This document shows, piece by piece, positions 6,637-32,978 of a DNA stretch of 64,000 bases. The notes beneath the pieces were generated by a model. It saw nothing but the letters and a program-made list of their open reading frames with translations. It searched no databases and was not told the DNA's origin. How positions within the stretch are numbered: position 1 is the stretch's first letter; every line of letters starts with the position of its first letter. The stretch spans positions 248-64,247 of the forward strand of contig VBKL01000044.1 of assembly GCA_005879805.1 (NCBI GenBank), given 5' to 3'. The DNA is from Deltaproteobacteria bacterium (GTDB taxonomy: Bacteria > Myxococcota > Myxococcia > Myxococcales > 40CM-4-68-19). Both the position numbers and the translations under genes were made by a program.

Positions 6637-7905
6637 ATGCACATCCGCGACCCCATCCACGGCGCGATCGAGATCAGCGCGGACGAGCGCGCTCTCGTGG
6701 ACAGCCCGCAGTACCAGCGGCTGCGCAACGTGAAGCAGCTCGGGTTCGCCGATCTCGCCTTTCCCGGCGCGACACACACCCGCTACGCCCACGGCCTCGG
6801 CGCGATGGCGGTGGCGACGCGGGTCTTCGATGCGCTCGCGCCGAAGCTCGACCTGCCCGATCGCGATCGCGACCGCCTGCGGCAGGCGCTGCGGCTCTCG
6901 GTGCTCTTCCACGATCTCGGCCACGCCCCGCTCTCCCACGCTACCGAGCGGATCATGCCGCCCGCCGCGGACCTCCGCATCCCCGACTGGACGCAGCCGC
7001 TGAAGCGCAGAACGCCGGGGCGGCGCGCGAACCATGAGGACTACACGCTCAAGCTCATCCTCGACTCGGGGCTCGCCGCGGAGATTTCCGCGCGCATGGG
7101 ACCGCGCGGCATCGAGCCTTCCCACATCGCCGCGCTCATCAGCGGGCAGAAGCCGCCGGGCGGGAACCCTTTCACGGTCGGCGATCGCGATCTGCTGCCG
7201 CTCCTACGGCAGATCGTTAGCGGCGAGCTGGACGCCGATCGGATGGACTACCTGCAGCGCGACTCCTTCTTCACCGGGGTGAACTACGGGAAGTTCGACC
7301 TCGACTGGATCGTGCAGAACCTGGAGACCGTCGAGCGCGCCGGCCGCGTGCACCTGGCGTTGCAGCACCGCGCCGTCTTCGCCTTCGAGGACTTCCTGCT
7401 CTCGCGCTACCACATGTTCCTCTCGGTCTACTTCCACTACGCCTCGGTCGGCTACGAGCAGCTTCTGCAGCGTTACTGCGATACCAGCGGCGGGGAGTAC
7501 GAGCTGCCCGCGGACGTCGACGAGTACCTCGAGCACGACGACGTGACCCTGACCGCCGCGCTGCGGGCGAGCAAGAATCCATGGGCGATGCGCATCGTGC
7601 GCCGCCAGGGCTACCGGCTGCTCCTCGAACGGGGGCCATTCCTCGATCCGCGCGGCGCGCCCGATCTGGAAGAGGGGCTCTCGCTGCTCGCCTCGTCGGG
7701 AATCGACGGTTTCATCACGCTCTCGCGGGGCATCCTCGCCACCTACGGACGCGACGCGCCCCTCTGGGTGCGAACGCCGCGAGGCGAAGTGCCGATCGCC
7801 GAGTACACGCCGCTCTACGAGCGCTACGCGGAGCCGGCGATGCTTTCGCGCCTCTACGTTCCGCCGGAACGATTCGACGAGGCGCGCAGGCTGGTCGATT
7901 CCTGA
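6637..7905 (+). CDS. HD-domain phosphohydrolase (SAMHD1/dGTPase-like, COG1078-type)
   Basis: Inside ORF 6172..7905 starting at MHIRDPIHG. Motifs 'THTRYAHGLG', 'LFHDLGHAPLSH' and 'DADRMDYLQRD' are present. Confidence 0.85.
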   Translation: MHIRDPIHGAIEISADERALVDSPQYQRLRNVKQLGFADLAFPGATHTRYAHGLGAMAVATRVFDALAPKLDLPDRDRDRLRQALRLSVLFHDLGHAPLSHATERIMPPAADLRIPDWTQPLKRRTPGRRANHEDYTLKLILDSGLAAEISARMGPRGIEPSHIAALISGQKPPGGNPFTVGDRDLLPLLRQIVSGELDADRMDYLQRDSFFTGVNYGKFDLDWIVQNLETVERAGRVHLALQHRAVFAFEDFLLSRYHMFLSVYFHYASVGYEQLLQRYCDTSGGEYELPADVDEYLEHDDVTLTAALRASKNPWAMRIVRRQGYRLLLERGPFLDPRGAPDLEEGLSLLASSGIDGFITLSRGILATYGRDAPLWVRTPRGEVPIAEYTPLYERYAEPAMLSRLYVPPERFDEARRLVDS

Positions 7906-9015
7906 TCAGGAATTCGGGGCCCGGCGCACCGCCAGGATCACCGCGGCGCTGCCTTCGAAGGGAACCGCCCGGGCAACCACCGCGACGAGGATGTCGGGAC
8001 CCGTCGCACTTCGCAGCCGGAGCTGGTGCTCGGAAGGAGGCTGGCCGCCGCGCACCGAGACGAGGCGCGCGACCTCGACACGATCGACCGCCGCGAAAAG
8101 ATCGGCGAGGGCCGCCCCGGAAAGCTGTGCGGGGTCCGATGCGCCCGCGAGCAGCGCAAAGGCGGGATTGGCGTAGAGGATCCGTCCGTTGCGGATGAGA
8201 CCGAGACCCTCGGGGGCCTCGTCTACCAGCAGCTGCAAGCGGGAGTCCGTAACGCGCTGGTCCTCGGCAGCCTTCCGCCGATCGGTCGTGTCGCGCACCA
8301 CGCTGAGCAAGAGCCGTTCGCCGCCCACCTCGATGGTCGTGGAGCTGACCTCCACCGGAAAGATGCCGCCGTCGCGGCGGCGGTGACGGGTCTCGAAGAA
8401 GATTCCGTCGTGCTGGGCCCGCTCGATCTGGCGCTCCACCTCGGTCAGGGTGGTCGGATCGCGCAGGTCGCTGACCTTGAGCTGCACCAGCTCCTCGCGC
8501 GGATATCCATAGGCCCGCATCGCGGCGCGGTTGGCGTCGACGATCCTGCCGTCCCAGGTGAGCATGAGGACGATGTCGCGCGAGTGATCGAACAGCGCGC
8601 GGCAGCGCGCCTCCAGCGCCTCGAGCTTGCGGCGGTCGCTGATGTCGCGCACGACGACCATGTGCGCGTCGATCCCCTCGAAGGAGAGCGGGGAGCTGAG
8701 CGTCTCGACGTCGAAGGTCGATCCGTCCTTGCGGCGGTGCCTCATGCCCGGTCGCGCCATCTTCCGCGCGCCCTTGAAGACGCCCGCGCGCGAAGGCTCG
8801 TAGATGAGACCGAGCTGGCCCGCGTCCTCCGGAGGGTGGAGCTGCCGGGCGTCCATCTTCTCGAGCTCCTCGCGCGAGTACCCGTACTCGAGGAGGAAGG
8901 CCTCGTTGGCCGCGACGATGCGCAGCGTCTTCAGGTCGTAGACGAAGATCGGCTGCGGATTCGTCTCGAACAGATGGCGGAACCCGTCCTCGGTGCCCAT
9001 CGGGAGGTCGGACAT
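7906..9015 (-). CDS. Triple-PAS-domain sensor protein without recognisable output domain
   Basis: 3' part of composite ORF 7906..12000, starting at MSDLPMG (ATG 9015). Three PAS-like repeats each end in '...RDISDRR', '...RDTTDRR' or '...VRRAPNS'. The stop abuts the stop of the convergent HD gene. Confidence 0.75.
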   Translation of the reverse strand: MSDLPMGTEDGFRHLFETNPQPIFVYDLKTLRIVAANEAFLLEYGYSREELEKMDARQLHPPEDAGQLGLIYEPSRAGVFKGARKMARPGMRHRRKDGSTFDVETLSSPLSFEGIDAHMVVVRDISDRRKLEALEARCRALFDHSRDIVLMLTWDGRIVDANRAAMRAYGYPREELVQLKVSDLRDPTTLTEVERQIERAQHDGIFFETRHRRRDGGIFPVEVSSTTIEVGGERLLLSVVRDTTDRRKAAEDQRVTDSRLQLLVDEAPEGLGLIRNGRILYANPAFALLAGASDPAQLSGAALADLFAAVDRVEVARLVSVRGGQPPSEHQLRLRSATGPDILVAVVARAVPFEGSAAVILAVRRAPNS

Positions 9016-15394: not shown

Positions 15395-16462
15395 ATGCGA
15401 GGCGGAAGGGGGTCGCTCGCGTTAAGCTGCCAGGCTGTGATTCCCGCCGACGTTTCCGCCCCTTTGAAGGCTCTTCCCCGCGAAATTCCCGCCGAAGAGG
15501 CGCAGCCTCTGACGCCCCAGGAGGCCCTCCGCCTCGCCCGGTCGCTGGAGGCGAACGTCGCCCGCGCCCTGCGCGGCAAGGCCGAGGTCATCGAGCTTGC
15601 GCTGGCCGCCCTCGGCGCCAACGGACACCTGCTCCTCGAGGACGTTCCCGGCGTCGGCAAGACCACGCTGGCGCACGCGCTAGCGCGGTCGCTCGACCTG
15701 TCCTTCGCGCGCATCCAGTTCACGAGCGACCTGCTCCCCGGCGACATCACCGGCGTCTCCGTCTACGAGCAGCGCAGCGGGCAGTTCGTCTTCAAGTCGG
15801 GTCCGCTCTTCGCGAACCTCGTGCTCGCCGACGAGATCAACCGCACCACCCCGCGCACCCAGAGCTGTCTGCTCGAGGCGATGGCCGAGCGGCAGGTGAC
15901 GGTGGACGGCACGCCGCGCGCCTTGCCCTCGCCTTTCCTCGTCCTCGCGACGCAGAACCCGCACGAGCATTCGGGAACGTATCCTTTGCCCGAGTCTCAG
16001 CTCGACCGGTTCTTGTTGCGCCTCTCGGTGGGATATCCCGAGGCGGGCGTCGAGCGCGAATTGCTCCTCGGCGGCGGCACCGAGGAAGAGCTGCACGATC
16101 TCCGCCCGGTCGCCACGGCCGGCGATCTCCGCCGCCTGCAAGCAGCCGTTTCCGAGGTGCGGGTCGCCGACGAGGTCGCCGATTACGTCCTCGCCATCGT
16201 CGCCGCTACGCGCAGCTCGCGATTCCTCTCGCTGGGCGTTTCGCCCCGCGGAGCGCTTTCGCTCATGCGCGCCGCGCAGGCGCGCGCGCTCCTGCGCGGC
16301 AGGGACTATCTCGAGCCGGACGACGTGAAGGCGCTGTGCATTCCCTGCCTCGCGCACCGCGTGGTGCTGGCGGGTCACGGAGGCATCCGGCCGGGTCTCG
16401 AGCGCGAGGCCACCGAGCGCGCCATCCGCGAGATCGCCGAGCAGGTACCGGTTCCGGTGTGA
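15395..16462 (+). CDS. MoxR-family AAA+ ATPase
   Basis: 3' part of ORF 14258..16462. Walker A 'DVPGVGKT', Walker B 'LVLADEINR', and 'ATQNPHE'. Start is ATG 15395 or GTG 15437. Confidence 0.88.
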   Translation: MRGGRGSLALSCQAVIPADVSAPLKALPREIPAEEAQPLTPQEALRLARSLEANVARALRGKAEVIELALAALGANGHLLLEDVPGVGKTTLAHALARSLDLSFARIQFTSDLLPGDITGVSVYEQRSGQFVFKSGPLFANLVLADEINRTTPRTQSCLLEAMAERQVTVDGTPRALPSPFLVLATQNPHEHSGTYPLPESQLDRFLLRLSVGYPEAGVERELLLGGGTEEELHDLRPVATAGDLRRLQAAVSEVRVADEVADYVLAIVAATRSSRFLSLGVSPRGALSLMRAAQARALLRGRDYLEPDDVKALCIPCLAHRVVLAGHGGIRPGLEREATERAIREIAEQVPVPV

Positions 16463-17276: not shown

Positions 17277-19372
17277 TCGACGTCCTTCGCCTCCGCCGTC
17301 TGAGCCTCGCGAGCGCCCAGCAGTGGGCCAGCTCGCTGGCAGCGGCATGCGCGTTCTGCGCCGTCGCGGCGGGCGGCGAACTGGCGCTTCCCATCGCCAT
17401 CGCCTTTCCGCTCGCCCTCGGATTCTCGGTGGCGTTCGGCGACCGCGTGGCAGGCAAGTACCAGTGGGCGTGGACCGCGGCGCTCGTCCTGGCGGTCGTG
17501 ATCGAGTTGGTCCTCGTCGTCCTCGGACGCGAGGACCCGGTCCTCGCCGCCGCGCAGTTCTCGGTGCTCTTGTGCATGCACCGTCTGTGGCACCGTCGGA
17601 ACGAGCGCGACGAGTATCTCCTGCTCCTCTTGTCGCTCCTCATGGTGTGCGCGGGCGCGGCGCTCTCCGCCGAGCTTCTCTTCGGCGTCAGCTTCGTCGC
17701 CTACGCGATCTGCGCCACCTGGGCCCTGGCGCTCACGCACCTGCGCTTCGAGGTCGAGCGGCGCTCCGAAGCGCCGCGCCGGAACGTCCTCGCCCCGTCG
17801 CTCCTCGCGAGGCTCGCCGCGCTGGCGGTGCTCGGTCTCGCCGGCACCACGCTTCTCTTCGTCGGCTTTCCGAGAATGGCGTTCGGAGGCCTGCGCCGTC
17901 ATCCCGCGGCCTCCCGTGCCGTCGCCGGGCTGAGCGATCAGATCACGCTCTCGGGACACGGCACCATTGCCGACGACCCGCGCGTCGTGCTGCGGGTCCA
18001 GGCGGCGAAGGACGAGGACGGGATGAAGCTCGTCGGCATGCACTGGCGTGCCCGCTCGTTCGACGTCTGGACCGGCAACGGGTGGCGCTCGCGCAGCGAT
18101 CTCGGGCGGCGGCGGGTGCTCTCCGAGGCTCCTCCGATGCGCAGGGATCCCGACTGGCGCGCCAAGCGCGCCGACGTCCAGTCCTTCGAGGTGGAAGCCG
18201 TGGCCGGGTTCTCCGACGGGGTCATTCTCACCCCCGAAGGCTGGCCCGTCTCCGCGTTCTTTCCCCACGGGTTCGGCGGCCGCGCGCCCCGGGTCTTCCG
18301 CACGCCGAGCGGCGACTTCCTCTATACGCCACTGCAGGCCTCGGACGTCCGCTACGTCGTCAACGTCGATCGCACGATGGCCAACCACGCCGAACTTCGC
18401 GGACGCGGTCGCGACTACCCTCCCGAGGTCGCCGTCGACCTCGTCGTTCCCCCCAACCTCGACCCACGGGTCCAGGCGCTCTCGAGCAGGCTCACCGCAC
18501 GCAAGGATCCGGTCGACGCCGCGGCCTCCGTGGAGACCTGGCTCTCCAACGCCCTGGCTTACTCGCGCGACCTGAGCGGCGAGTCGCAGGATCCCATCGC
18601 GAACTTCCTCTTCCGCACCAAGAAGGGACATTGCGAGCTCTTTTCCAGCGCGATGGTCATCCTCCTGCGGGCCGCGGGCATCCCGGCGCGCAACGTTACC
18701 GGGTACTACGGCGGCACCGAGACCGACAGCGGTTATGTGGCGATTCGCGCGGGTGACGCCCATTCCTGGGTCGAGGTCTATTTTCCCGGCGCGGGCTTCG
18801 TGCCCTTCGATCCCACTCCTTCCGCGGGCCGTGGAGCGCGCACCGAGGGACTGTGGCCCAGGGCGGTGCTCGCCTGGGACTCGCTGGCCCAGCGCTGGAG
18901 CCGATTCGTCATCGACTACGACCTGGTCGCGCAATCGCGCGTCCTGAGCAGCGTCGGCAAGGGCCTCTCGCGCATCGGCGACCGGCTCCGCGGCAAGCAA
19001 GGCGCCGCGACCGCGTTTCAGTGGGCGTTGCCCGCCGGGATCGCCGCGGTCCTGCTCGCCGCGGGCGCCTTCTACGCGGCACGCCGCAAGCGACGCGCCG
19101 GCACTCACGGCCGCACGCTCTCCGGCGACGAGGCGCGTGCACGAAGCCTCTGGCTCGCGGCCCGCCACCGCCTGGAAAGGTCGCACGTTGCGGTCGCGCC
19201 TTCCGCCGGCGTTCGCGAGGCGGTGGAGCGGATCGCTCTCCACGTTCCCAGGGCCAGGGGGCCGGTCGAGAAGATTGCCGAGGCCGTTCTCGCCGCGCGC
19301 TGGGGCGGGCGCCCGCTCGAGCGTCGCGAGGCGCGGGCGCTGCTCGAAAGCCTCGACGCCGCGCTCCGGTAG
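17273..19372 (+). CDS. Transglutaminase-like membrane protein (TgpA-like)
   Basis: ORF 17273..19372. The GTG overlaps the DUF58 stop (GTGA). Multi-TM N-half. Cys-His-Asp core 'KKGHCELFSS', 'DAHSWVEVY' and 'FDPT'. Confidence 0.88.
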   Translation: MIDVLRLRRLSLASAQQWASSLAAACAFCAVAAGGELALPIAIAFPLALGFSVAFGDRVAGKYQWAWTAALVLAVVIELVLVVLGREDPVLAAAQFSVLLCMHRLWHRRNERDEYLLLLLSLLMVCAGAALSAELLFGVSFVAYAICATWALALTHLRFEVERRSEAPRRNVLAPSLLARLAALAVLGLAGTTLLFVGFPRMAFGGLRRHPAASRAVAGLSDQITLSGHGTIADDPRVVLRVQAAKDEDGMKLVGMHWRARSFDVWTGNGWRSRSDLGRRRVLSEAPPMRRDPDWRAKRADVQSFEVEAVAGFSDGVILTPEGWPVSAFFPHGFGGRAPRVFRTPSGDFLYTPLQASDVRYVVNVDRTMANHAELRGRGRDYPPEVAVDLVVPPNLDPRVQALSSRLTARKDPVDAAASVETWLSNALAYSRDLSGESQDPIANFLFRTKKGHCELFSSAMVILLRAAGIPARNVTGYYGGTETDSGYVAIRAGDAHSWVEVYFPGAGFVPFDPTPSAGRGARTEGLWPRAVLAWDSLAQRWSRFVIDYDLVAQSRVLSSVGKGLSRIGDRLRGKQGAATAFQWALPAGIAAVLLAAGAFYAARRKRRAGTHGRTLSGDEARARSLWLAARHRLERSHVAVAPSAGVREAVERIALHVPRARGPVEKIAEAVLAARWGGRPLERREARALLESLDAALR

Positions 19373-22393: not shown

Positions 22394-24112
22394 TCACTCG
22401 ACCACGACTGAGATTCCGTCGGTTCCTTCCTCGCTCGCGGTAACTTGAAGGTCGTAGGTCCCGCGCCTCAGGAAGCGGCCGTACCAGAGCCCGCCCCGGA
22501 CGAGTTCTCCGCCGGGAAGTCGCCACTGCACGGAGGAGGCGGTGACGCCCGGCGCCAGGCCCGCAAGGGAGATCGCGCAGCTCGATCCTGCCGGCACGTG
22601 CAGGGCGTCGTCGCGAAGGGCGCAGGGGCCATCGACGGCAATCGCCGGGCCCGTTCCGACTCGCAGGGAAACCTCCAGAACCGTACGCGCCGACGGTTGA
22701 TCGGCCCACGACACGGCAACGTGGCCGGTGTGCGCTCCGCTCGAGAGGCCCGCGGGGTCGACGCGGACGGTGAGCCGCGCCGGGGCCTCGCCGGACGTCT
22801 TTGCCAGCTGGATCCACCCCGCGTCGGTCTTCGCGACCCATTGCTTCGAGCCCCCGCCCTCCTGGCGCAGCGTGATCGTCTGTGCGCGAGGCGTCTTCCC
22901 CGACGCCGCCGCGAATTCGAGCTTGGCGCGGGACAGGTGCGGAGGCTGAGCCTGGTCTCCACCTCCACCCGTCACTCCGAGCGCATCCAGCGCCTTCGCG
23001 ACGTCGATTTTCTTGTCCGCGCGGCCCGCCGATTCGAGGAGCGCCTTCTTCACCTGCGCGAGCGTCGCGGCGGGCCGCGCGGACCAGAGCAGGGCGGCCG
23101 CGCCGGAAACGTGCGGGGCGGCCATGCTGGTTCCGTCGTAACGCGCGTACTGGCCAGGTGCGGTGGTGGAGAGGATTCCCACTCCCGGCGCCGTGAGCAT
23201 CGCGCCCCGATTCGAGAAGCTGGCGAGCGTACCGTCCGGATTGAGCGCGCCGATGATCGCGCGCAGCGCCATGATGGAAACCTTCCAGTTGACCCCGACG
23301 ACTCCGGCCCGGTTGTCGCCGACCGCGCCGATGGTTCCCGAGACGTGCGAGCCGTGCCAGCGCTCCGCGCCGGAAGAAGCGGGCCCGGGCTGCGCATCGT
23401 TGTCGACGAAATCCCATCCGTGCACGTCGTCCACGAGACCGTCCCCGTCGTCGTCGCGTCCGTTCGACGACGATTCCTCGGGATTGACCCAGATGTTCGC
23501 GGCCAGGTCGGAATGGGTCATCGCGACGCCGTCGTCGATGACGGCGACGGCAATGGCGCGGTCACCCACCGTCGTCGACCACGCGGACTCGACGTCGATG
23601 GCCTTGAGCCCCCACAGCTCCTTGTAGCGGGAGTCGTTGGGCGTCTTGCTCGAGGTGTAGATCGCGATCGGCTCGGCGAGCGCAATGCCGGGCTGCGCCG
23701 ACAGCGAGCGCGCGTACTCGTCCGGCGTTTGCCCGGCGGGAACCGGCACCCGGAGGATCGGATCCGAATCCGCGGGCGCGACGGAAGCGACCTGCACGAT
23801 GGGCGGGCCGGCATCGTCCCCGCGCTGCGGGGGCGGCAGGGTCGCGCCTGGATCGAGCCGGACGAGCACGGCGTCGGTTGCGTAGACCGGCTGCGACGAC
23901 GGATCGCCGCAAGCGCTGGTGATCAAGGCGGCCACCGCGGCGGCTCTCAGGGGCGCGGTGCGCAGCCGCTTGTGAGGTCGCCTCGGGTACTCCCGGAGAT
24001 CCTCCAGGCTCGGGCCGTCGAAGAGCGGATCCTCCGGCGCGAGGCGCTCGAGCGAATGCAGAGCGCCATCGGTGGCGAAAGGCCTTTCGCGGACGTTGCA
24101 GGTTTCGTGCAT
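22394..24112 (-). CDS. Subtilase (S8) serine peptidase with C-terminal beta-rich domains; catalytic domain internally shortened
   Basis: ORF 22394..24112. Asp 'AVIDDG', His 'HGSHVSGTIGA' and Ser 'GTSMAAPHVSG' are present, but His-to-Ser spacing is only 76 codons and no 'AAGN' oxyanion segment exists. Start uncertain (long leader before 'AAVAALITSAC'). Confidence 0.75.
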   Translation of the reverse strand: MHETCNVRERPFATDGALHSLERLAPEDPLFDGPSLEDLREYPRRPHKRLRTAPLRAAAVAALITSACGDPSSQPVYATDAVLVRLDPGATLPPPQRGDDAGPPIVQVASVAPADSDPILRVPVPAGQTPDEYARSLSAQPGIALAEPIAIYTSSKTPNDSRYKELWGLKAIDVESAWSTTVGDRAIAVAVIDDGVAMTHSDLAANIWVNPEESSSNGRDDDGDGLVDDVHGWDFVDNDAQPGPASSGAERWHGSHVSGTIGAVGDNRAGVVGVNWKVSIMALRAIIGALNPDGTLASFSNRGAMLTAPGVGILSTTAPGQYARYDGTSMAAPHVSGAAALLWSARPAATLAQVKKALLESAGRADKKIDVAKALDALGVTGGGGDQAQPPHLSRAKLEFAAASGKTPRAQTITLRQEGGGSKQWVAKTDAGWIQLAKTSGEAPARLTVRVDPAGLSSGAHTGHVAVSWADQPSARTVLEVSLRVGTGPAIAVDGPCALRDDALHVPAGSSCAISLAGLAPGVTASSVQWRLPGGELVRGGLWYGRFLRRGTYDLQVTASEEGTDGISVVVE

Positions 24113-24255
24113 GGACCCTCCCGGCGCGAGAGCGCGCCGCGCGGGCCGGTGCAGATGCCGTGCCGCTGGCTTTACGCTCGAAGCGAGCGTGGCCGGGCGG
24201 TGTCAGAATCGGATCCGGGTGCCAGTTCGAGACGTCACCCGGGAGGTCCCGCGGC

Positions 24256-24560
24256 GTGTCCGCATCCGTCGACTTCCATCGCTGGATCGGCAACGACCTC
24301 GAGCTGCGCATCCGGGCACAGCCGGGAGCGAGACAGACGGAGGTGAACGGGCTCCACGGCGAGCTTCTCAAGATTCGCGTGCGCGCGCGAGCGATCGAAG
24401 GCGCGGCCAACGAAGCGCTTCTGGAATTCCTGGCAGACGAGTTGCAAGTGCCGCGGGGGCGATGCGAGCTCGTGAGCGGAGAAAAGCACCGCGAGAAGCG
24501 GATCCTGGTACGCGAGGCGCCGCGTGCGCACTGCGAGAGCGTCCTCGCGCGGTGGGCCGC

Positions 24561-24582
<22 letters not shown>
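24256..24582 (+). CDS. DUF167 (YggU) family protein
   Basis: ORF 24160..24582. GTG 24256 is preceded by 'gggagg' at 24241-24246. 'LKIRVRARAIEGAANEALLEFLADEL' matches the family core. The 3' end overlaps alaS by 22 nt (convergent). Confidence 0.7.
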
Positions 24583-27251
<2,669 letters not shown>

Positions 27252-27386
27252 GGGGGCGGGAAGATAAGGAGATCGATGCCCCTTGTCACTCGAGCATCGA
27301 CCGGGGGCCCGCACGCCTGTCCAGAAGGCGGATCGATGGCGGCGGATGCGAAAATTCGTCCAAAAATCGCCATCTTAGACGGATCG

Positions 27387-28361
27387 CTAAGCGGAAACTG
27401 CGGCGCGCTGCCTGAGGATCAGGGCGTGGAAGAGCTGGGCAAAACCGCCCTTCGCCGAGGCATCGGGCCAGCGCGGCGAACCCAGCGGGGGCAATTCGAG
27501 CAACAACAGACGCGACAGCCAGGGAAACCGGCGCCGCACCTCGCTCGCCGGAGCAGCGAACACTTCGCACCGGGCGAGCCGCCGCAGGCGCCAGAGGTCG
27601 GTGTAGCTCGCGCAGCGCACCGAGAGGTCGGCTTCGAGAAGCTCGTGCAATGGGACCTGCTCGACGTCGAGGCCCGCGCCGCGCGCCGCTTCGCGGAGCT
27701 GGCGGAAATCGATCGACCATTCCACGTGCCGTCCGGCGCCCGCCCCAGCGACGAGCTCGATCGGAGAGGGCGGGAAATCGCCGCCGAACTCGATGAGCAC
27801 AGCGGCGGCCGAAGGGGCGAGGATGCGCGCAATTTCGCGGACGACCTCGATCGCTCCGGTGTTCGTGCCGCCTTGGACGGGGAGATCGGCGATGACCTCG
27901 TTGGCGAGGAGCAGTCCGTCGAAGCGGCGGACGGGGAGATCCATCGCGTCGGCGCGAATTCCTCGCCAGCGCGGAGGCGCTCCCTGGGCAGCAGCGGCAT
28001 CGAGCAGCCGCTGCCGCTGCGAGCGGAGGAGTCGCGGCGAGAGATCGAGCGAGATCCACGGCACGCCCGTGAAGGGCCCGGCATCGCCGCGCAGCGCGCA
28101 TTCCGCGACGTGGCCCGCGCCTCCGCCGATCTCCAGGACACCGTCGCGCCCGGGCCCGATCCGGCGCGCCGCCAGCCCCTGCAGGAGCGCCTCGCCGTAG
28201 CGGCGTCCCTTCAGCGCTGGATGTGGGTGGCGGAGCAAGTGCGAGATGGTGCACTCGACTTCGTCGAAGCGGCGCCGCGGCGACAGGCTGTCGAGGCGAT
28301 GGTGCGCCCGCGTCTCGTCCTCGGGCGCCCCCGCGCCGCGCGTTCGATGGGCGTCGCTCAC
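27387..28361 (-). CDS. Class I SAM-dependent methyltransferase (MidA/NDUFAF7-like)
   Basis: ORF 27387..28361. 'VLEIGGGAGH' SAM motif and 'LLLANEVIADLPV'. Confidence 0.6.
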   Translation of the reverse strand: MSDAHRTRGAGAPEDETRAHHRLDSLSPRRRFDEVECTISHLLRHPHPALKGRRYGEALLQGLAARRIGPGRDGVLEIGGGAGHVAECALRGDAGPFTGVPWISLDLSPRLLRSQRQRLLDAAAAQGAPPRWRGIRADAMDLPVRRFDGLLLANEVIADLPVQGGTNTGAIEVVREIARILAPSAAAVLIEFGGDFPPSPIELVAGAGAGRHVEWSIDFRQLREAARGAGLDVEQVPLHELLEADLSVRCASYTDLWRLRRLARCEVFAAPASEVRRRFPWLSRLLLLELPPLGSPRWPDASAKGGFAQLFHALILRQRAAVSA

Positions 28362-28373
28362 ATCTCACGCCGC

Positions 28374-29258
28374 CTAGCAGAACGGAGGGATCTCGACGGT
28401 GATCGTGCCGGGTCCGGACGAGCCTGCCTGGAAGGTGAACTGCAGCGGCGAAAGCGGGTCGACGGCGGGCCCGTTGACCACCTCGCCGTCGAGGAGGAAC
28501 ACGGATCCGTGGCAGGGACAGTGCAGCCGACCCGTGAGCGGTAGCACCGTGCAGGTGAGGTGGGTGCAGAGCGCGGAGAAGACGAGAAAGCCGCCCTGGG
28601 CAGTGACAGGAGGGTCAGGGCGGGTCACGACGATGGGGGAGGGGGCGCCGTCGGGATGACCGACCACCGCTCCGCCCGGAGATTGCAGCGTCCGGTACTT
28701 CGGCTCGGCGAGGTCGATGACCACCGATCCGTTTGTTACCGGCGGAAAGACCTTGTCGCCCGCGAAGAGGTTGACGACGACCGATCCCGAGGCGTCGAGG
28801 ATTGCGGGATAGGTCTGGAGATCGGTAACGGCCGGTCCGCTCAGCACCGTCCCGTCGCCGGCGAAGCGCGAACCGTGGCACGGGCACTCCGCCTGGCGGT
28901 CCTTCTCGACCCAGGCGATCTCGCAGTTCGCATGGGGACAGAGCGCGCTCATGGCGAGGATGCCGGATCCCGTGTTCACGATCAGAACCGGATTGGCGAC
29001 GCATGGGTTGTGGGCGACGATGGCCCCGCCCGCGCGAGCGAGCTCGCGAAAGTCGCTCGTAGAGAGGACGAGCTTCCCGTCCACCGGCGCGCCGACGTTC
29101 ACGTCGCGGTCAGGCGAGATCCGGCCACACCCCACCAGCGCCCCGACTGCGGGAGCGCAGGCCGCGAGGGCGGCGCCGCGCATGAGTTGCCTGCGCGAGC
29201 AACCCTGCCCGGGCATGCCGGTCGGCAAAGCGATCACTGGAAGCTTGTCGTCTGCCAT
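28374..29258 (-). CDS. Tat-exported protein with two tandem Rieske [2Fe-2S] domains
   Basis: ORF 28374..29258. Twin-arginine motif 'SRRQLMRGAAL'. Cluster 1 is 'CPHANC...CPCHGSRF'; cluster 2 is 'CTHLTC...CPCHGSVF'. Both carry the extra Cys pair of bc-type Rieske proteins. Confidence 0.88.
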   Translation of the reverse strand: MADDKLPVIALPTGMPGQGCSRRQLMRGAALAACAPAVGALVGCGRISPDRDVNVGAPVDGKLVLSTSDFRELARAGGAIVAHNPCVANPVLIVNTGSGILAMSALCPHANCEIAWVEKDRQAECPCHGSRFAGDGTVLSGPAVTDLQTYPAILDASGSVVVNLFAGDKVFPPVTNGSVVIDLAEPKYRTLQSPGGAVVGHPDGAPSPIVVTRPDPPVTAQGGFLVFSALCTHLTCTVLPLTGRLHCPCHGSVFLLDGEVVNGPAVDPLSPLQFTFQAGSSGPGTITVEIPPFC

Positions 29259-29266
29259 GCGCCTTC

Positions 29267-29923
29267 TCAGAAGGTGAGGACGAGGAAACCCGCGGCCGTT
29301 GCCGCGAGCGTGGTGTAGCCGACGATCTGGTGCGCGACCGCGAAGTTGCGCTGCGCGAGCGTGCCTTCCTTGCCCGCCGTGAGGATGCCGAGCACGATCT
29401 GGGTCGCCATTCCCGCGGTGGCGACGATCATCGTCGCCTTGTGCAGGGTGGCGGTGTCGAGCCGGAGAGGCTTCTCGAAAGGGTTGGGAGCGAGGACCGA
29501 GAGGATCCCGGTCGCCGCGAAGACTCCCGCGGCGGTGTACGCGACCAGCGTGTGCGGCGTCCTGTAGGTCCCGATGTCCCCGCCGCCCCCGTACTTGTCG
29601 ATGTAATTGAGCTGCCCGAGGACCACCGTCGCCGTCATGGTGGCGAGAGTGGCGTATCCGCCGATCTGGTGGAGTCGCAGGAGCGTCCTGCGCCGGTTGA
29701 CCTCGCTCTGGATACGCGCCTGTCTCGCGAGCGCGGCGGCGTCCGGCTTCTTTTCGGGCGCGAGCAGGTTGAAGTCGTCGTCCGGCGGCTTCGTCTTCGG
29801 AGGCTCGGTTCCCTGCGACTGCGGCGACGACTGGGCGAGCAGCGCTGCCTCACGGAGCGAAAGGAGGGTCGGGCTCGGGTGGAAGACCGGCGCGACGGCG
29901 ATGAGGACGGCGAGAGAGATCAT
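29267..29923 (-). CDS. Membrane protein with four His-initiated TM helices (putative di-haem b-type)
   Basis: Inside ORF 29267..29953 starting at MISLAVLIAV (ATG 29923; 1-nt TGATG overlap with the upstream gene). A Pro/Lys-rich linker is followed by 4 hydrophobic helices beginning 'LHQIGGYAT', 'PHTLVAYTA', 'LHKATMIVA' and 'AHQIVGYTT'. Confidence 0.6.
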   Translation of the reverse strand: MISLAVLIAVAPVFHPSPTLLSLREAALLAQSSPQSQGTEPPKTKPPDDDFNLLAPEKKPDAAALARQARIQSEVNRRRTLLRLHQIGGYATLATMTATVVLGQLNYIDKYGGGGDIGTYRTPHTLVAYTAAGVFAATGILSVLAPNPFEKPLRLDTATLHKATMIVATAGMATQIVLGILTAGKEGTLAQRNFAVAHQIVGYTTLAATAAGFLVLTF

Positions 29924-30492
29924 CAGTTCCTCTGCGCGCCCTGCGCGATCCATTGCCGGACCACCGCCACCGCCTCCGGGCAGATGGTTCCCGGAGCATC
30001 GGCAGGCATTCCCGATCCGTACTGAGGATTTGCAGGGTCCGTGAGCTGGAGCTTGCGGACGAGGAAGCTGCCCTCGGGGCTATCGTCCTCAGGCTTGACG
30101 AGGATGAATGTCTGTAGGTGCACGGTGGCGCCGAGGTTCCGGGCGGTGCGGTTGACGAGATTCGTGAACGGGTCGGTCGAGAGATCGAGGCCGCTCGAGC
30201 TCGCCGCGCCTCCACTGGAATGGCAATTGATTGCTTTCTCGCCGCTGACCCCGCACGAGACGCGGAAAAGGCCCTTGTCGATGCTGGAGAGCTTCGGCTC
30301 GAGGGCAGGGCAGGTGCGCGTTCCCTGCAAGCACTGCCCCGCGGAGCAGAAGGCATTCGCTCCGCAATCCGGGTCGATGGCGCAGTCGACCGGTTGCACC
30401 GCGGGACCGCACGCTGCCGCGAAAAGCGCCGCGGCGCACGTGACCGCGAGAGCGGCACCTATCCTCGCCCCGGATCCCCCCATGCCCCTCAT
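29923..30492 (-). CDS. Lipoprotein with PSCyt1 (planctomycete cytochrome c)-like domain
   Basis: 3' part of ORF 29923..31017 starting at MRGMGGSG (ATG 30492). Lipobox 'LFAAAC'. '...SCGVSGEKAINCHSSGG...GLDLS...VKPEDDSPEGSFLVRKL...MP...VAVVRQWIAQGA' follows the PSCyt1 pattern, but with C-X9-CH instead of CxxCH. Confidence 0.55.
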   Translation of the reverse strand: MRGMGGSGARIGAALAVTCAAALFAAACGPAVQPVDCAIDPDCGANAFCSAGQCLQGTRTCPALEPKLSSIDKGLFRVSCGVSGEKAINCHSSGGAASSSGLDLSTDPFTNLVNRTARNLGATVHLQTFILVKPEDDSPEGSFLVRKLQLTDPANPQYGSGMPADAPGTICPEAVAVVRQWIAQGAQRN

Positions 30493-31052
30493 CACTGGCG
30501 CGCCTCGAAAAGGAGGTTGCCCTCGATGGTCATCTTGTCGTCCACCTTGACGAGCAGCAACTCCGGCCGCTCGACCTTGTGGGCATCGAGGCTGACCGGG
30601 AAGCTGAACTTCGCGCGGATGCCCGATCCCTCGGGCGTCAGCGTCACGGGGATCGTCTGCCGCTCGCTCTCGCCGTTCAACTCCACGCGCGCGTCGAGCG
30701 GAAGCTGCGTCGGTCCCGAGAGCGGAAGCTGCAACGACGGCAGGGTGCCCTTCACCTCCACGTAGGGGTGCGCGGCCTCGTGGGTCGCCTCGCGCATGTG
30801 CGAATCGCGGTTGGAGTTCCCGCTGTCGAACGAGGCCACCGGCACGCGCACCTGTACGAGCGTGGGCCCGCCGGACTGGATCTTGGCGAGGCCTTCCAGC
30901 TTGCGCGACGTTCCGTGCACCTCGTGGAGCTTGTGCACGAGGGTGTACGTGATCGCGCCCTCCTTCACTCCGTAGAGCGAGACGGGCGTCTGCTGCGCCA
31001 GCGCGGCGCAGACGCAAACGACCGTCGCGGCAACGGCGATGCGAGCGCGCAT
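30492..31052 (-). CDS. YceI-like periplasmic protein
   Basis: ORF 30492..31055. Signal peptide MRARIAVAATVVCVCAALA. 'VASFDSGNSNRDSHMRE' is typical of the YceI family. Confidence 0.8.
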   Translation of the reverse strand: MRARIAVAATVVCVCAALAQQTPVSLYGVKEGAITYTLVHKLHEVHGTSRKLEGLAKIQSGGPTLVQVRVPVASFDSGNSNRDSHMREATHEAAHPYVEVKGTLPSLQLPLSGPTQLPLDARVELNGESERQTIPVTLTPEGSGIRAKFSFPVSLDAHKVERPELLLVKVDDKMTIEGNLLFEARQ

Positions 31053-31124
31053 CAACGGATGCGGGCCGGGATCCGGGCGGCGAGAGGTTCGAGCGAGGAG
31101 AAGGTCGTCATTGGCCTCCGGGGG

Positions 31125-31904
31125 TCAGGTGTGCGGCAATGCGCCTACGAGGACGATCGGTCCGAGCGGCTGGGGCGCCCCTCCTGCCGATTCCACCGTG
31201 ACGGCCAGCGCGTCCGGCGTCTCGCTGAGCAGGGCGGGATCGATGCGAGCGAGAATCGCGCCTGAGGGCTGCGTACGCAAGAGGCCTGCGGGGAGCTTCT
31301 TGTCGCCGCGGATGACCCAAAGCTCATAATCCTTCCCCGAAGGGGCCGGCGGCCCCGCCGCGTATAGGACCGCCGCTCGCGACGGCAGATTCACCAGCGC
31401 GCGGGCCGTGATGCTCGCGCCCGCTTGCTGGGGCGCAAGGGCGACGACCTGCGTCGAGGGAGAGGCGAGAAGGGCGAGCGCCTCGCGCTGGAGCACCGCG
31501 TCGCTCCGGGCCTCGGCGAGGTCGCGGGCGCACTGATCGCGCTCGGCGCTGGCTGCGCCAAGGGTGGCGGCGCGACGCTCCGCGCGGATGCGCGCCCCTT
31601 GCACCCCGACGACCGCGAGGGCGAGCGCGGCGGCGACGGCCCAACCCGTCCAGGTGCGGATGGCCGCCGCACGCGGCTTCTGCTCGATGCGAGAAGCGAT
31701 GCCTTGCCAGACGCGCGCATCCGGGCGCAAAGGCGGCAAGGATCGTCCCACCGCATCCCAGGTGTCGGAGGCCCGCCGCAGCGCCTCGAAGCATCCGTCG
31801 TGCGTCGGTTCGCCGAGATGCTGCTCGGCGGCGGAACGCTCGGGAGGATCGAGCGCTCCGGCGGCGAACAGCGCGGCGATCTCCTTGAACTCGACGCAGG
31901 TCAT
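31125..31904 (-). CDS. Anti-sigma factor (RskA-like, single TM)
   Basis: 3' part of composite ORF 31125..32978 starting at MTCVEFKE (ATG 31904; ATGA overlap with the sigma gene stop). Central TM 'WAVAAALALAVVGV'. C-terminal 'DYELWVIRGDKKLPAGLL'. Confidence 0.75.
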   Translation of the reverse strand: MTCVEFKEIAALFAAGALDPPERSAAEQHLGEPTHDGCFEALRRASDTWDAVGRSLPPLRPDARVWQGIASRIEQKPRAAAIRTWTGWAVAAALALAVVGVQGARIRAERRAATLGAASAERDQCARDLAEARSDAVLQREALALLASPSTQVVALAPQQAGASITARALVNLPSRAAVLYAAGPPAPSGKDYELWVIRGDKKLPAGLLRTQPSGAILARIDPALLSETPDALAVTVESAGGAPQPLGPIVLVGALPHT

Positions 31905-32494
31905 GGAAGCGCATTCCTCTTTTCGTCGTCGAGGAGCGCGGCGAGCTTTTCCAGGGCGAGGCGGACCCGCGTCTTCACGGTACCGAGCGGGTCGCCAGTG
32001 CGCTCGGCGATCTCGCGCTGCGTCAGGCCGGCGAAATAGGAAAGCTCGATGGCGCCGCGCTGCTCCGCGGGCAACGCCGCGAGGGCGCGCTGCACCCGCT
32101 CGCGATCCTGCCGCTGCACGGCTGACTCGATGGGCAAGGGCGACGGCTCCGGCTCCTCGCGAGCGGATGCGGCGACGGCCCGCTCCGCGCTTCCCCGCGA
32201 CCGGAGGCGGTCGAGGGCGCGGCTTCTGCAAACGGCGAGGACGAACGACGATGCGCTGCCGCGCCGCGGATCGAAGCTCGCCGCCCGTCGCCAGACCTCG
32301 ACGAACGCCTCCTGCACCACGTCCTCCGCCTCGGACTTCGCACGCAGGATGCGGAAAGCGACCGCAAGCGCCGCCGCGGCGTGGTGATCGTAGAGCGTGC
32401 GCAGGGCCCGGGAGTCTCCCGCTGCGACGCGCCGCAAGAGCGGCTGGTCGGCCTCCGCGCGACCCACGACGCCGAGCAGCGCGGCGAGGAGCAT
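31901..32494 (-). CDS. ECF (group IV) RNA polymerase sigma factor
   Basis: ORF 31901..32662. Region 2 'AEDVVQEAFVEVWRRA' and region 4 'LSYFAGLTQREIAERTGDPLGTVKTRV'. ATG 32494 preferred; ATG 32545 possible. Confidence 0.85.
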   Translation of the reverse strand: MLLAALLGVVGRAEADQPLLRRVAAGDSRALRTLYDHHAAAALAVAFRILRAKSEAEDVVQEAFVEVWRRAASFDPRRGSASSFVLAVCRSRALDRLRSRGSAERAVAASAREEPEPSPLPIESAVQRQDRERVQRALAALPAEQRGAIELSYFAGLTQREIAERTGDPLGTVKTRVRLALEKLAALLDDEKRNALP

Positions 32495-32648
32495 GGCTTG
32501 TGTGCGATACCCCGGCGGGCGCAGGGCTGCAACCCCGGCCGTCATGCAAGGGGTACGGAGCCGGAAGGCCCGTGGATTCGTGCCCGAAAACGGAGCGCGC
32601 GCTCTTACAGCGCGGTGGCCTCGCCCTTGCGTTCCGCCGCGCGCTGCC

Positions 32649-32978
32649 CTCTTCGTACTCATCGGGGATGGAGAGGCAGCCCTCGGTGTAGCTGAACTCG
32701 CCCTCCGCCTCGCGGATGACCGGGTCGATGAGCCAGAAGAGGCCTTCCCCCTTCTTCTTGGGGGCCTCGCCCTCCTTCGGCTTCTGCTCGACGTCCATGG
32801 CGATGATGTTCTGGTGCACGCCGACCTGGGGCGCGGCGAGGCCGACGCCGTGCGATTCGTACATGGTCTCGGCCATGTCGTCGCACAGCTTGCGGACGGC
32901 GGCGTCCACCGCGCCGACGGGCTTTGCCTTCTGCTTGAGGCGGGGATCGGGCCAGATGAGGATTTCGCGCAAAGCCAT
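32649..32978 (-). pseudogene. def: Peptide deformylase, 3'-truncated (lacks HExxH motif)
   Basis: The first 110 codons of ORF 31125..32978 carry 'GVGLAAPQVG' and 'EGCLSIP'. After '...DEYEE' similarity ends, and no 'HExDH' occurs in any frame before the sigma gene. Confidence 0.7.

Follow-up and report, generated by a model that had tools for sequence, protein, structure and literature searches.

Lipocalins of the YceI family are widespread, as are their cytochrome b561 partners, and how they work is unsettled. In Burkholderia cenocepacia, the lipid-peroxyl detoxification system LcoA-BcnA (yceJ-yceI in Escherichia coli) consists of a cytochrome b561 and a YceI lipocalin that are encoded together and sometimes fused (PMC9113575). 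Mutants of lcoA-bcnA accumulate lipid peroxidation products, and the authors of that work proposed a lipocalin-bound quinone that the cytochrome reduces again (PMC9113575). Here, we analyze a gene cluster in which the b561-YceI partnership has apparently been rebuilt around a different, unannotated family of four-histidine membrane proteins, with defined periplasmic carriers added. The cluster occupies positions 28374 to 32494 of a 64,000-nucleotide stretch (hereafter the window) of contig VBKL01000044.1, from a member of the Myxococcota deposited as Deltaproteobacteria bacterium (assembly GCA_005879805.1). Its six minus-strand genes encode an extracytoplasmic function (ECF) sigma factor, an anti-sigma factor, a YceI lipocalin, a cytochrome-c-like lipoprotein, a membrane protein with four transmembrane (TM) helices (the 4-TM protein), and a lipoprotein with two Rieske domains. 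We propose that the cluster is an inner-membrane and periplasmic electron-transfer module around the 4-TM protein, analogous to cytochrome b561-YceI. We put the probability of this architecture at roughly 55% and hold the physiological role with less confidence. On our reading, the system would act like a b561-YceI module made of different or highly diverged parts, plus extra carriers.

As in LcoA-BcnA, the yceI gene adjoins the gene of a small inner-membrane protein with four helices and four histidines. This adjacency is found in many genomes and, in our dataset, in both gene orders, one of which (4-TM followed by YceI, in a distant branch of the family) matches lcoA-bcnA. A link to stress is also shared, here via the ECF sigma factor. 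However, the membrane partner in the window is not a detectable member of PF01292, and it differs further in its cleaved signal peptide, its long periplasmic linker and a conserved LDFDLL motif. Unlike LcoA-BcnA, the system also includes periplasmic redox lipoproteins (tandem Rieske, PSCyt1-like or di-CxxCH cytochrome), and we saw no fusion of 4-TM and YceI. An Aldo_ket_red gene, which recalls the aldehyde reductase partner of the LcoA-BcnA-PsrA system, is adjacent in one locus only (L076, 7210-8004), where it overlaps the start of the 4-TM paralogue by 4 nucleotides.

The 4-TM protein belongs to an unannotated family without a Pfam model. Its database counterpart is an identical 'hypothetical protein' in a metagenome-assembled genome (MAG) of a soil 'Deltaproteobacteria bacterium', and its family spans 520 clusters at 50% identity with E ≤ 1e-3 (151 with E ≤ 1e-30). 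We aligned 46 members that are 32-59% identical to the window protein and found eight invariant columns: H85, H124, H161, H198, G89, G103, A145 and G179. One invariant His stands at the start of each helix, with His-to-His spacings of 39, 37 and 37 residues. The original prediction had suggested a b-type role for this protein, to be refuted if its histidines were not conserved; their conservation down to about 32% identity passes that check. H85 and G103, like H161 and G179, are spaced i+18, so that on one face of TM1, and likewise of TM3, a small residue lies five turns from the His. Such a pattern would be expected where two haems pack inside a four-helix bundle. The AlphaFold2 model, a confident four-helix bundle (pLDDT 86.9), places the helices at residues 62-111, 121-144, 157-184 and 191-217. 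Most members begin with a typical cleavable Sec signal peptide, followed by a variable Pro/Ala-rich linker and then the LDFDLL motif. Because the signal peptide is cleavable in most members, the N-terminus, H85 and H161 are predicted to face the periplasm, and H124 and H198 the cytoplasm.

Weak Pfam matches among the 46 members went to Cytochrom_B561 (PF03188; 6 of 46), Ni_hydr_CYTB (2 of 46) and COX15-CtaA (1 of 46), three families that belong to a single Pfam clan, that of membrane cytochromes with two haems. One member, P0185, reached the PF03188 cutoff (23.5 versus 23 bits), although over TM1-TM2 only and with no such match for the window protein; comparison with PF01292 gave weak matches in just 2 of the 46 relatives. 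Like the eukaryotic-type CYB561 proteins (PF03188), the 4-TM protein carries a single His in each of four successive helices, at similar spacings; the core His spacings of b561 are 34, 34 and 39, and CYB561 has six TM helices. Unlike CYB561, it is bacterial, has four TM helices and a signal peptide, and in it we recognized no ascorbate-site motifs. The 4-TM protein therefore looks like a di-haem b561-type cytochrome, but its similarity to known cytochromes is marginal and it cannot be assigned to either b561 family.

Gene neighbourhoods were compared across about 70 related loci, gathered by contig look-ups, a one-genome-per-species scan (33 loci) and a scan of metagenomes for which distant members served as seeds (28 loci); window proteins were mapped onto all loci by tblastn. 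Note that the scans were pattern-based and seeded with narrower alignments, which would miss remote members, and the taxonomic range is thus a lower bound. The constant element across these loci is the 4-TM protein. In the window's own clade, almost every locus lies in the same frame, with priA-def on one side and a methyltransferase gene and alaS on the other, and YceI, 4-TM and the methyltransferase are always present in these def-alaS loci. The lipoprotein and Rieske genes co-occur in about half of them and are both absent elsewhere, with two exceptions: L029 has the Rieske gene only, and in L007 the Rieske gene is a 66-codon stump. Many relatives of the window, though not the window itself, also carry a conserved, cytoplasmic-looking protein of 90-99 amino acids between the module and the methyltransferase gene (L001 10676-10975, L003 11651-11950, L012 11909-12181), with the motif CLxRLYEMDxAL ... 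GAEARRRV ... LLLxPWD.

In a distant branch, where the 4-TM protein is 38-49% identical to that of the window, yceI lies next to the 4-TM gene in 12 of the 17 informative loci. The order is YceI-4TM in the window's clade and 4TM-YceI in 11 distant loci; YceI lies upstream in the distant locus L058. All 17 informative distant loci also have, adjoining these genes and after 4-TM, the gene of a small lipoprotein with two CxxCH motifs. This protein follows the pattern M-x-PG-x-DC-x-x-CH ... AGNFYT ... G-x-CN-x-CH, matches no Pfam or NCBIfam model above threshold, and none of the loci in the window's clade was found to encode it.

A paralogous cluster with unrelated flanks (type B; L021 8001-14691, L022, L075 8001-14647, L076 8001-14479) occurs in several of the same genomes. 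It begins with a 4-TM paralogue, an outer-membrane-protein-like gene on the opposite strand and a 675-amino-acid PSCyt2-like protein with CxxCH, and continues with a DUF1501-like protein carrying a twin-arginine translocation (Tat) signal, a tandem Rieske lipoprotein, a 245-amino-acid protein and a 147-amino-acid PSCyt1-like lipoprotein (C-x4-CH). The trio of 4-TM, tandem Rieske and PSCyt1-like lipoprotein thus recurs in two architectures. We find that the association of 4-TM with YceI and with periplasmic redox lipoproteins persists through changes of order, partners and location. The six genes had been put forward as a unit; what is conserved is the link of 4-TM to YceI, in both orders, and to the Rieske and PSCyt1-like proteins, in two cluster types, rather than a fixed set of six. 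All named carriers are uncultured soil Myxococcota MAGs, and a further homology search with a diverse 4-TM alignment brought up mostly the close relatives found before, with no match from a cultured organism.

The YceI, ECF/RskA and Rieske assignments are ordinary family memberships. The YceI protein scores 39.7 bits against PF04264 (cutoff 23.7) and is 26% identical to E. coli YceI (BLASTP, E 6e-7), and its N-terminus (MRARIAVAATVVCVCAALA, then QQ after the predicted cleavage point) reads as a signal peptide. Both Rieske modules have the form C-x-H-x-x-C ... C-P-C-H, with residues C107/H109/C112/C125/C127/H128 in the first and C231/H233/C236/C247/C249/H250 in the second. Eight homologues, drawn from both type-A and type-B clusters, keep all 12 of these cluster and disulfide residues without exception, along with the Ser after box II, the Phe two residues later, the arginines of the Tat motif SRRQLM (R22-R23) and the Cys of the lipobox LVGC (Cys44). 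The YceI call, the Rieske ligands and the extra Cys pair of each module are therefore as first described.

A disulfide Cys pair with a CPCHGS box is typical of the quinol-oxidising Rieske proteins of the bc1 and b6f complexes, and high-potential Rieske proteins have Tyr at the Phe position. With Phe in place of Tyr, these centres may have a somewhat lower potential, as would befit an organism that uses menaquinone. The best model scores were likewise of the b6f/bc1 type (NCBIfam PetC 2.2e-22; QcrA), and the nearest solved structures to the Rieske domains are free Rieske proteins of 110 amino acids (8hn2, 5cxm). We considered whether the protein is instead an oxygenase ferredoxin component, the outcome that the original prediction had named as its own refutation. 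We rejected this on the scores, which reach 1e-9 for oxygenase ferredoxins versus 2e-22, and on the disulfide Cys pair. The ligand boxes, disulfide and Tat signal are shared with bc1/b6f Rieske proteins and with free small Rieske proteins such as cyanobacterial PetC3 (5cxm), but here two Rieske domains lie in one lipoprotein. Our literature search for tandem or double Rieske lipoproteins found nothing relevant.

The second periplasmic lipoprotein belongs to a small family (27 matches) and has no Pfam match. C61, C80, C90, H91, M162 (in GSGMP), C171 and W181 are invariant in 19 homologues, and an N-terminal Cys knot is nearly so. Between the Cys and the CH dipeptide, members have nine, six or four residues (C-x9-CH, C-x6-CH or C-x4-CH, the last in the type-B paralogue); no paper on such haem c motifs was found in our literature search. 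By eye, the segment past the CH dipeptide follows the layout of planctomycete-type PSCyt1, and the protein shares a GLDL segment, GSGMP and a C-terminal WIxxGA helix with PSCyt1 and the SO2930-family di-haem cytochromes c (TIGR03806). It differs from these in the spacing of its CH motif and in its N-terminal myxobacterial Cys knot, and its scores are far below the cutoffs: a partial match to the C-terminal haem domain of TIGR03806 reached E 4.5e-6 and 26 bits (cutoff 313), and the PSCyt1 profile (PF07635) matched 1 of 19 members at E 0.12. The lipoprotein was described as PSCyt1-like at the outset; the canonical CxxCH haem motif is missing from it. It is a reasonable inference from the invariant residues that haem would be bound covalently at C80 and C90 with His/Met axial ligation, and that C61 and C171 would form a disulfide.

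Taken as a module, these proteins suggest the following path. The 4-TM protein would be a minimal four-helix di-haem b-type cytochrome that moves electrons across the inner membrane, with one bis-His site near the periplasmic face (H85 of TM1 and H161 of TM3) and another near the cytoplasmic face (H124 of TM2 and H198 of TM4). The YceI lipocalin, in the periplasm, would hold either a lipid or an isoprenoid quinone and present it. In this lineage, the di-Rieske Tat lipoprotein and the C-x9-CH cytochrome-c-like lipoprotein, both tethered to the membrane, would extend the chain in the periplasm, so that periplasmic targets could exchange electrons with the menaquinone pool or with a donor in the cytoplasm. 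Judging by LcoA-BcnA as an analogue, such a chain would most likely serve to quench oxidants or lipid radicals in the envelope. In the sub-lineage that has it, the SigK/RskA-type ECF pair, inserted between def and yceI, would make transcription inducible by envelope stress from one autoregulated promoter. Haem binding by the 4-TM protein, the direction of electron flow and the physiological role are all deductions of ours. The locus would offer a natural variant for dissecting an electron path into its b-type protein, Rieske centres, c-type haem and lipocalin ligand. Furthermore, such loci would open candidate non-canonical haem c motifs (C-x4/6/9-CH) and a lipoprotein with two Rieske domains to experiment.

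Several observations weigh against this interpretation. The window 4-TM protein itself matches no Pfam family, the family profile found no relevant solved structure among PDB sequences, and a Foldseek search of the model against the PDB returned generic four-helix bundles only (E>0.1), which is uninformative. Comparison with E. coli YceJ by hhalign was null (probability 0.2%). We therefore rejected filing the 4-TM protein under the prokaryotic cytochrome b561 family (PF01292; LcoA, CybB, YceJ), and no homology was detectable to the yceJ-type cytochromes that the original prediction had mentioned. The histidines lie at the very start of each helix, a position equally suited to interfacial metal sites. 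In the lipoprotein, CxxCH is missing and C80-x9-C90-H91 stands in its place, and AlphaFold2 modelled the protein poorly (pLDDT 53). The Rieske and lipoprotein genes are missing from about half of the syntenic loci, most loci have nothing at the sigma/anti-sigma position, and no convincing ECF or shared motif was found directly 5′ of yceI. The role in lipid peroxidation is argued purely by analogy. The original prediction of an envelope redox module with the 4-TM protein in the b-type role is partly supported, by the invariance of the histidines and by the linkage to YceI and the Rieske and lipoprotein genes, but not by homology to b561 (YceJ).

The same parts could instead make up a respiratory quinol oxidoreductase, a mini Rieske/cytochrome-b complex in which the 4-TM and Rieske proteins oxidise menaquinol and pass electrons to the c-type lipoproteins and on to a periplasmic or terminal acceptor. 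The disulfide Cys pair and CPCHGS box of both Rieske domains, with their best scores against PetC and QcrA, are what such a complex would have; c-type cytochrome lipoproteins are obligate neighbours of 4-TM in the distant branch, and a di-haem cytochrome c lies near the L058 locus too. We nevertheless consider this unlikely. Cytochromes b and b6 carry two His on each of two helices, unlike the single His per helix of the 4-TM protein, and we found no Qo-site-like sequence and no oxidase gene nearby. As the original prediction had it, there is no cytochrome b, c1/f, arsenite-oxidase or oxygenase alpha gene within about 10 kb on either side, as judged on near-identical contigs; in particular, the partners of a bc1/b6f complex, a cytochrome b with two His on helices B and D and a cytochrome c1/f, were not found over this distance. 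Half of the loci do without a Rieske gene, and the close linkage to YceI, together with an ECF stress regulator, points to a protective accessory system. A bolder version, to which we give little credence, holds that the 4-TM proteins are an unrecognised class of minimal four-helix di-haem b cytochromes which, with the tandem Rieske and expanded-motif c-type lipoproteins, make up a third, independently evolved Rieske/cytochrome-b quinol-oxidising complex with YceI as its dedicated quinone or lipid shuttle.

It is improbable, in our view, that the 4-TM protein is not a cytochrome at all and that its His pairs bind Cu, Fe or Zn at each membrane face, in metal handling or a metal-dependent envelope chemistry, with the Rieske and cytochrome-like proteins changing the redox state of the metal. 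The position of the histidines at the helix starts, close to the membrane interfaces, would fit such sites, as would the lack of any significant match to haem proteins of known structure, and ECF sigma systems often control metal stress responses. However, the weak but repeated Pfam matches are solely to two-haem cytochrome families, the helix faces that carry the histidines also carry the invariant Gly and Ala residues, as expected for haem packing, and genes for metal transporters or chaperones are not among the co-conserved ones. The repeated association with YceI also resembles that in the known b561-YceI systems (PMC9113575). Finally, it is very improbable that the genes are adjacent merely through inherited def-alaS synteny, without forming a functional unit: nearly all loci of the clade share that frame and the named carriers are one group of soil Myxococcota MAGs, but the adjacency of 4-TM and YceI outlasts an inversion of order and wholly different flanks, the trio recurs in a second cluster of the same genomes, start and stop codons overlap, and linkage that survives changes of order, partner and location is therefore hard to explain by inherited synteny alone.

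Regulation of the module appears to vary between lineages. The sigma factor has regions 2 and 4 only, and its best NCBIfam matches, PRK12519 and SigK PRK09646, are both under their cutoffs. Its start at 32494, rather than 32545, is backed by N-terminal conservation in L028, a more distant MAG. The anti-sigma factor is a membrane protein with an RskA_C domain and a hydrophobic segment around residues 84-105. As in the SigK-RskA systems (ECF18/ECF19, PMC7826278), sigma regions 2 and 4 go with a translationally coupled RskA_C anti-sigma factor and a candidate autoregulated promoter. Unlike in those systems, the regulated genes are different, the pair is being lost in sister lineages, and the sigma sequence has a single Cys. 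SigK of Mycobacterium tuberculosis (ECF19) has a redox-sensing Cys pair (PMC7826278), and with one Cys the window protein cannot form that disulfide.

The candidate promoter GAATCC-N16-CCGTA is the sole match in the window, where 0.02 would be expected. Among 46 loci scanned, the motif lies only 5′ of sigma genes (L008-L011 and L028) and at a remnant in L005, and in L028 it is kept (with N17) inside an otherwise diverged spacer. This suggests an autoregulated ECF promoter. We found no terminator-like site between the anti-sigma gene and yceI, which makes read-through from the sigma operon into yceI and beyond plausible, and through it the sigma factor may control the module. The conserved blocks 5′ of yceI differ between sub-clades. 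One block, GAAGATCTGTCACAGTC, lies about 60-100 nucleotides 5′ of yceI in L003, L016, L018, L033 and L045; this sub-clade has the lipoprotein and Rieske genes and no sigma gene, and the block may be a different promoter or operator.

Among the loci fetched, the sigma/anti-sigma pair is retained only in the window, in the near-identical L008-L011, and in L028, where the two proteins are 64% and 47% identical to those of the window and encoded in the same position. In L005, a relative with 85% identity, an internal deletion (8420-8870) fuses sigma codons 1-21 to anti-sigma codons 162-259, with the ECF promoter motif still present about 425 nucleotides 5′ of yceI. In L007 and L014, the anti-sigma 3′ end alone remains. 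The pair is a lineage-specific regulatory add-on and not a defining part of the module, because it is patchy and decaying among close relatives. The originally predicted arrangement, an ECF-sigma-headed operon, thus holds only for this sub-lineage (window, L008-L011 and L028), and three close relatives (L005, L007 and L014) keep only deletion remnants. In L012 (8575-9404, on a 749-kb contig), a 124-amino-acid gene and a DUF4399 gene fill the def-yceI gap where the window has sigma and anti-sigma.

Four independently assembled soil contigs are 99.7-99.97% identical to the locus, and about twenty soil metagenome runs contain most of its sampled 31-letter words. Three soil metatranscriptomes have short contigs identical to parts of yceI (30491-30800), the Rieske gene (28794-28944) and def, which shows low-level transcription of the locus in situ. 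Another contig from these metatranscriptomes (28336-28583) crosses the junction of the Rieske and methyltransferase genes and hints at their co-transcription; contig data of this kind cannot define an operon. The def gene of the window (32605-32978) is short of about 193 nucleotides in comparison with four sibling contigs, and its HEMDH metal-site motif is lost. The junction, between 32647 and 32648, is not spanned by any DNA contig from four soil runs or by any RNA contig, and loose ends continue into an intact def. The truncation is most likely an assembly artefact or a rare variant, and the module is unaffected. Two more segments of L008 of about 230 nucleotides (16210-16439 and 17390-17617) have no counterpart in the window, at about 23255 and 22306. 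These gaps lie in an S8 peptidase gene and the 207-amino-acid gene that follows it, in a pattern like that of the def gap.

The six genes of the cluster (Table 1) are flanked by def and alaS in a window of about 69% G+C, and all six open reading frames stand where they were first placed. A tight chain of six had been predicted. Three overlaps are present, namely ATGA at 31904-31901 (sigma stop and anti-sigma start), TGATG at 30494-30490 (YceI and lipoprotein) and TGATG at 29925-29921 (lipoprotein and 4-TM), and an 8-nucleotide spacer, GAAGGCGC, separates the 4-TM stop (29267) from the Rieske ATG (29258). However, the anti-sigma and YceI genes are about 70 nucleotides apart, and this junction is hence not tight.

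Table 1. Features of the cluster and its surroundings; positions are those of the window unless a locus is named.
Feature	Position	Strand	Support or remark
Candidate ECF-type autoregulatory promoter, GAATCC-N16-CCGTA	32554..32579	-	~60 nt 5′ of the 32494 sigma start
ECF sigma factor, SigK-like	31901..32494	-	Sigma70_r2 3e-17, r4_2 8e-15; alternative start 32545
RskA-type single-pass anti-sigma factor	31125..31904	-	RskA_C 2.4e-16, 60.6 bits vs cutoff 29.4
Periplasmic YceI-family lipocalin, Sec signal peptide	30492..31052	-	PF04264 7.9e-10, above cutoff
Lipoprotein with N-terminal Cys knot and PSCyt1-like cytochrome-c-like domain (C80-x9-C90-H91, M162)	29923..30492	-	
Four-helix membrane (4-TM) protein with H85, H124, H161, H198; proposed di-haem b-type cytochrome	29267..29923	-	
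Tat-exported lipoprotein with two bc/b6f-type Rieske [2Fe-2S] domains, 294 aa	28374..29258	-	Pfam Rieske 4.6e-22
S-adenosylmethionine (SAM)-methyltransferase-like gene, 324 aa	27387..28361	-	Methyltransf_28 1.2e-6
Di-CxxCH lipoprotein, distant branch (examples)	L047 4702-5205; L062 3127-3537; L069 7041-7484; L056 ~7256-7678, among others		

The methyltransferase-like gene is a seventh gene, which begins 12 nucleotides past the Rieske stop and is probably co-transcribed with the Rieske gene. We considered it as a member of the module, but it tracks the def-alaS synteny and was not found beside 4-TM in type-B or distant loci; it probably lies outside the module. Last, a 1490-codon open frame on the plus strand (24072-28544) runs antisense to alaS, the methyltransferase gene and the 3′ end of the Rieske gene. 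Antisense frames with few stops are usual in genomes of high G+C content, and this one is not a gene.

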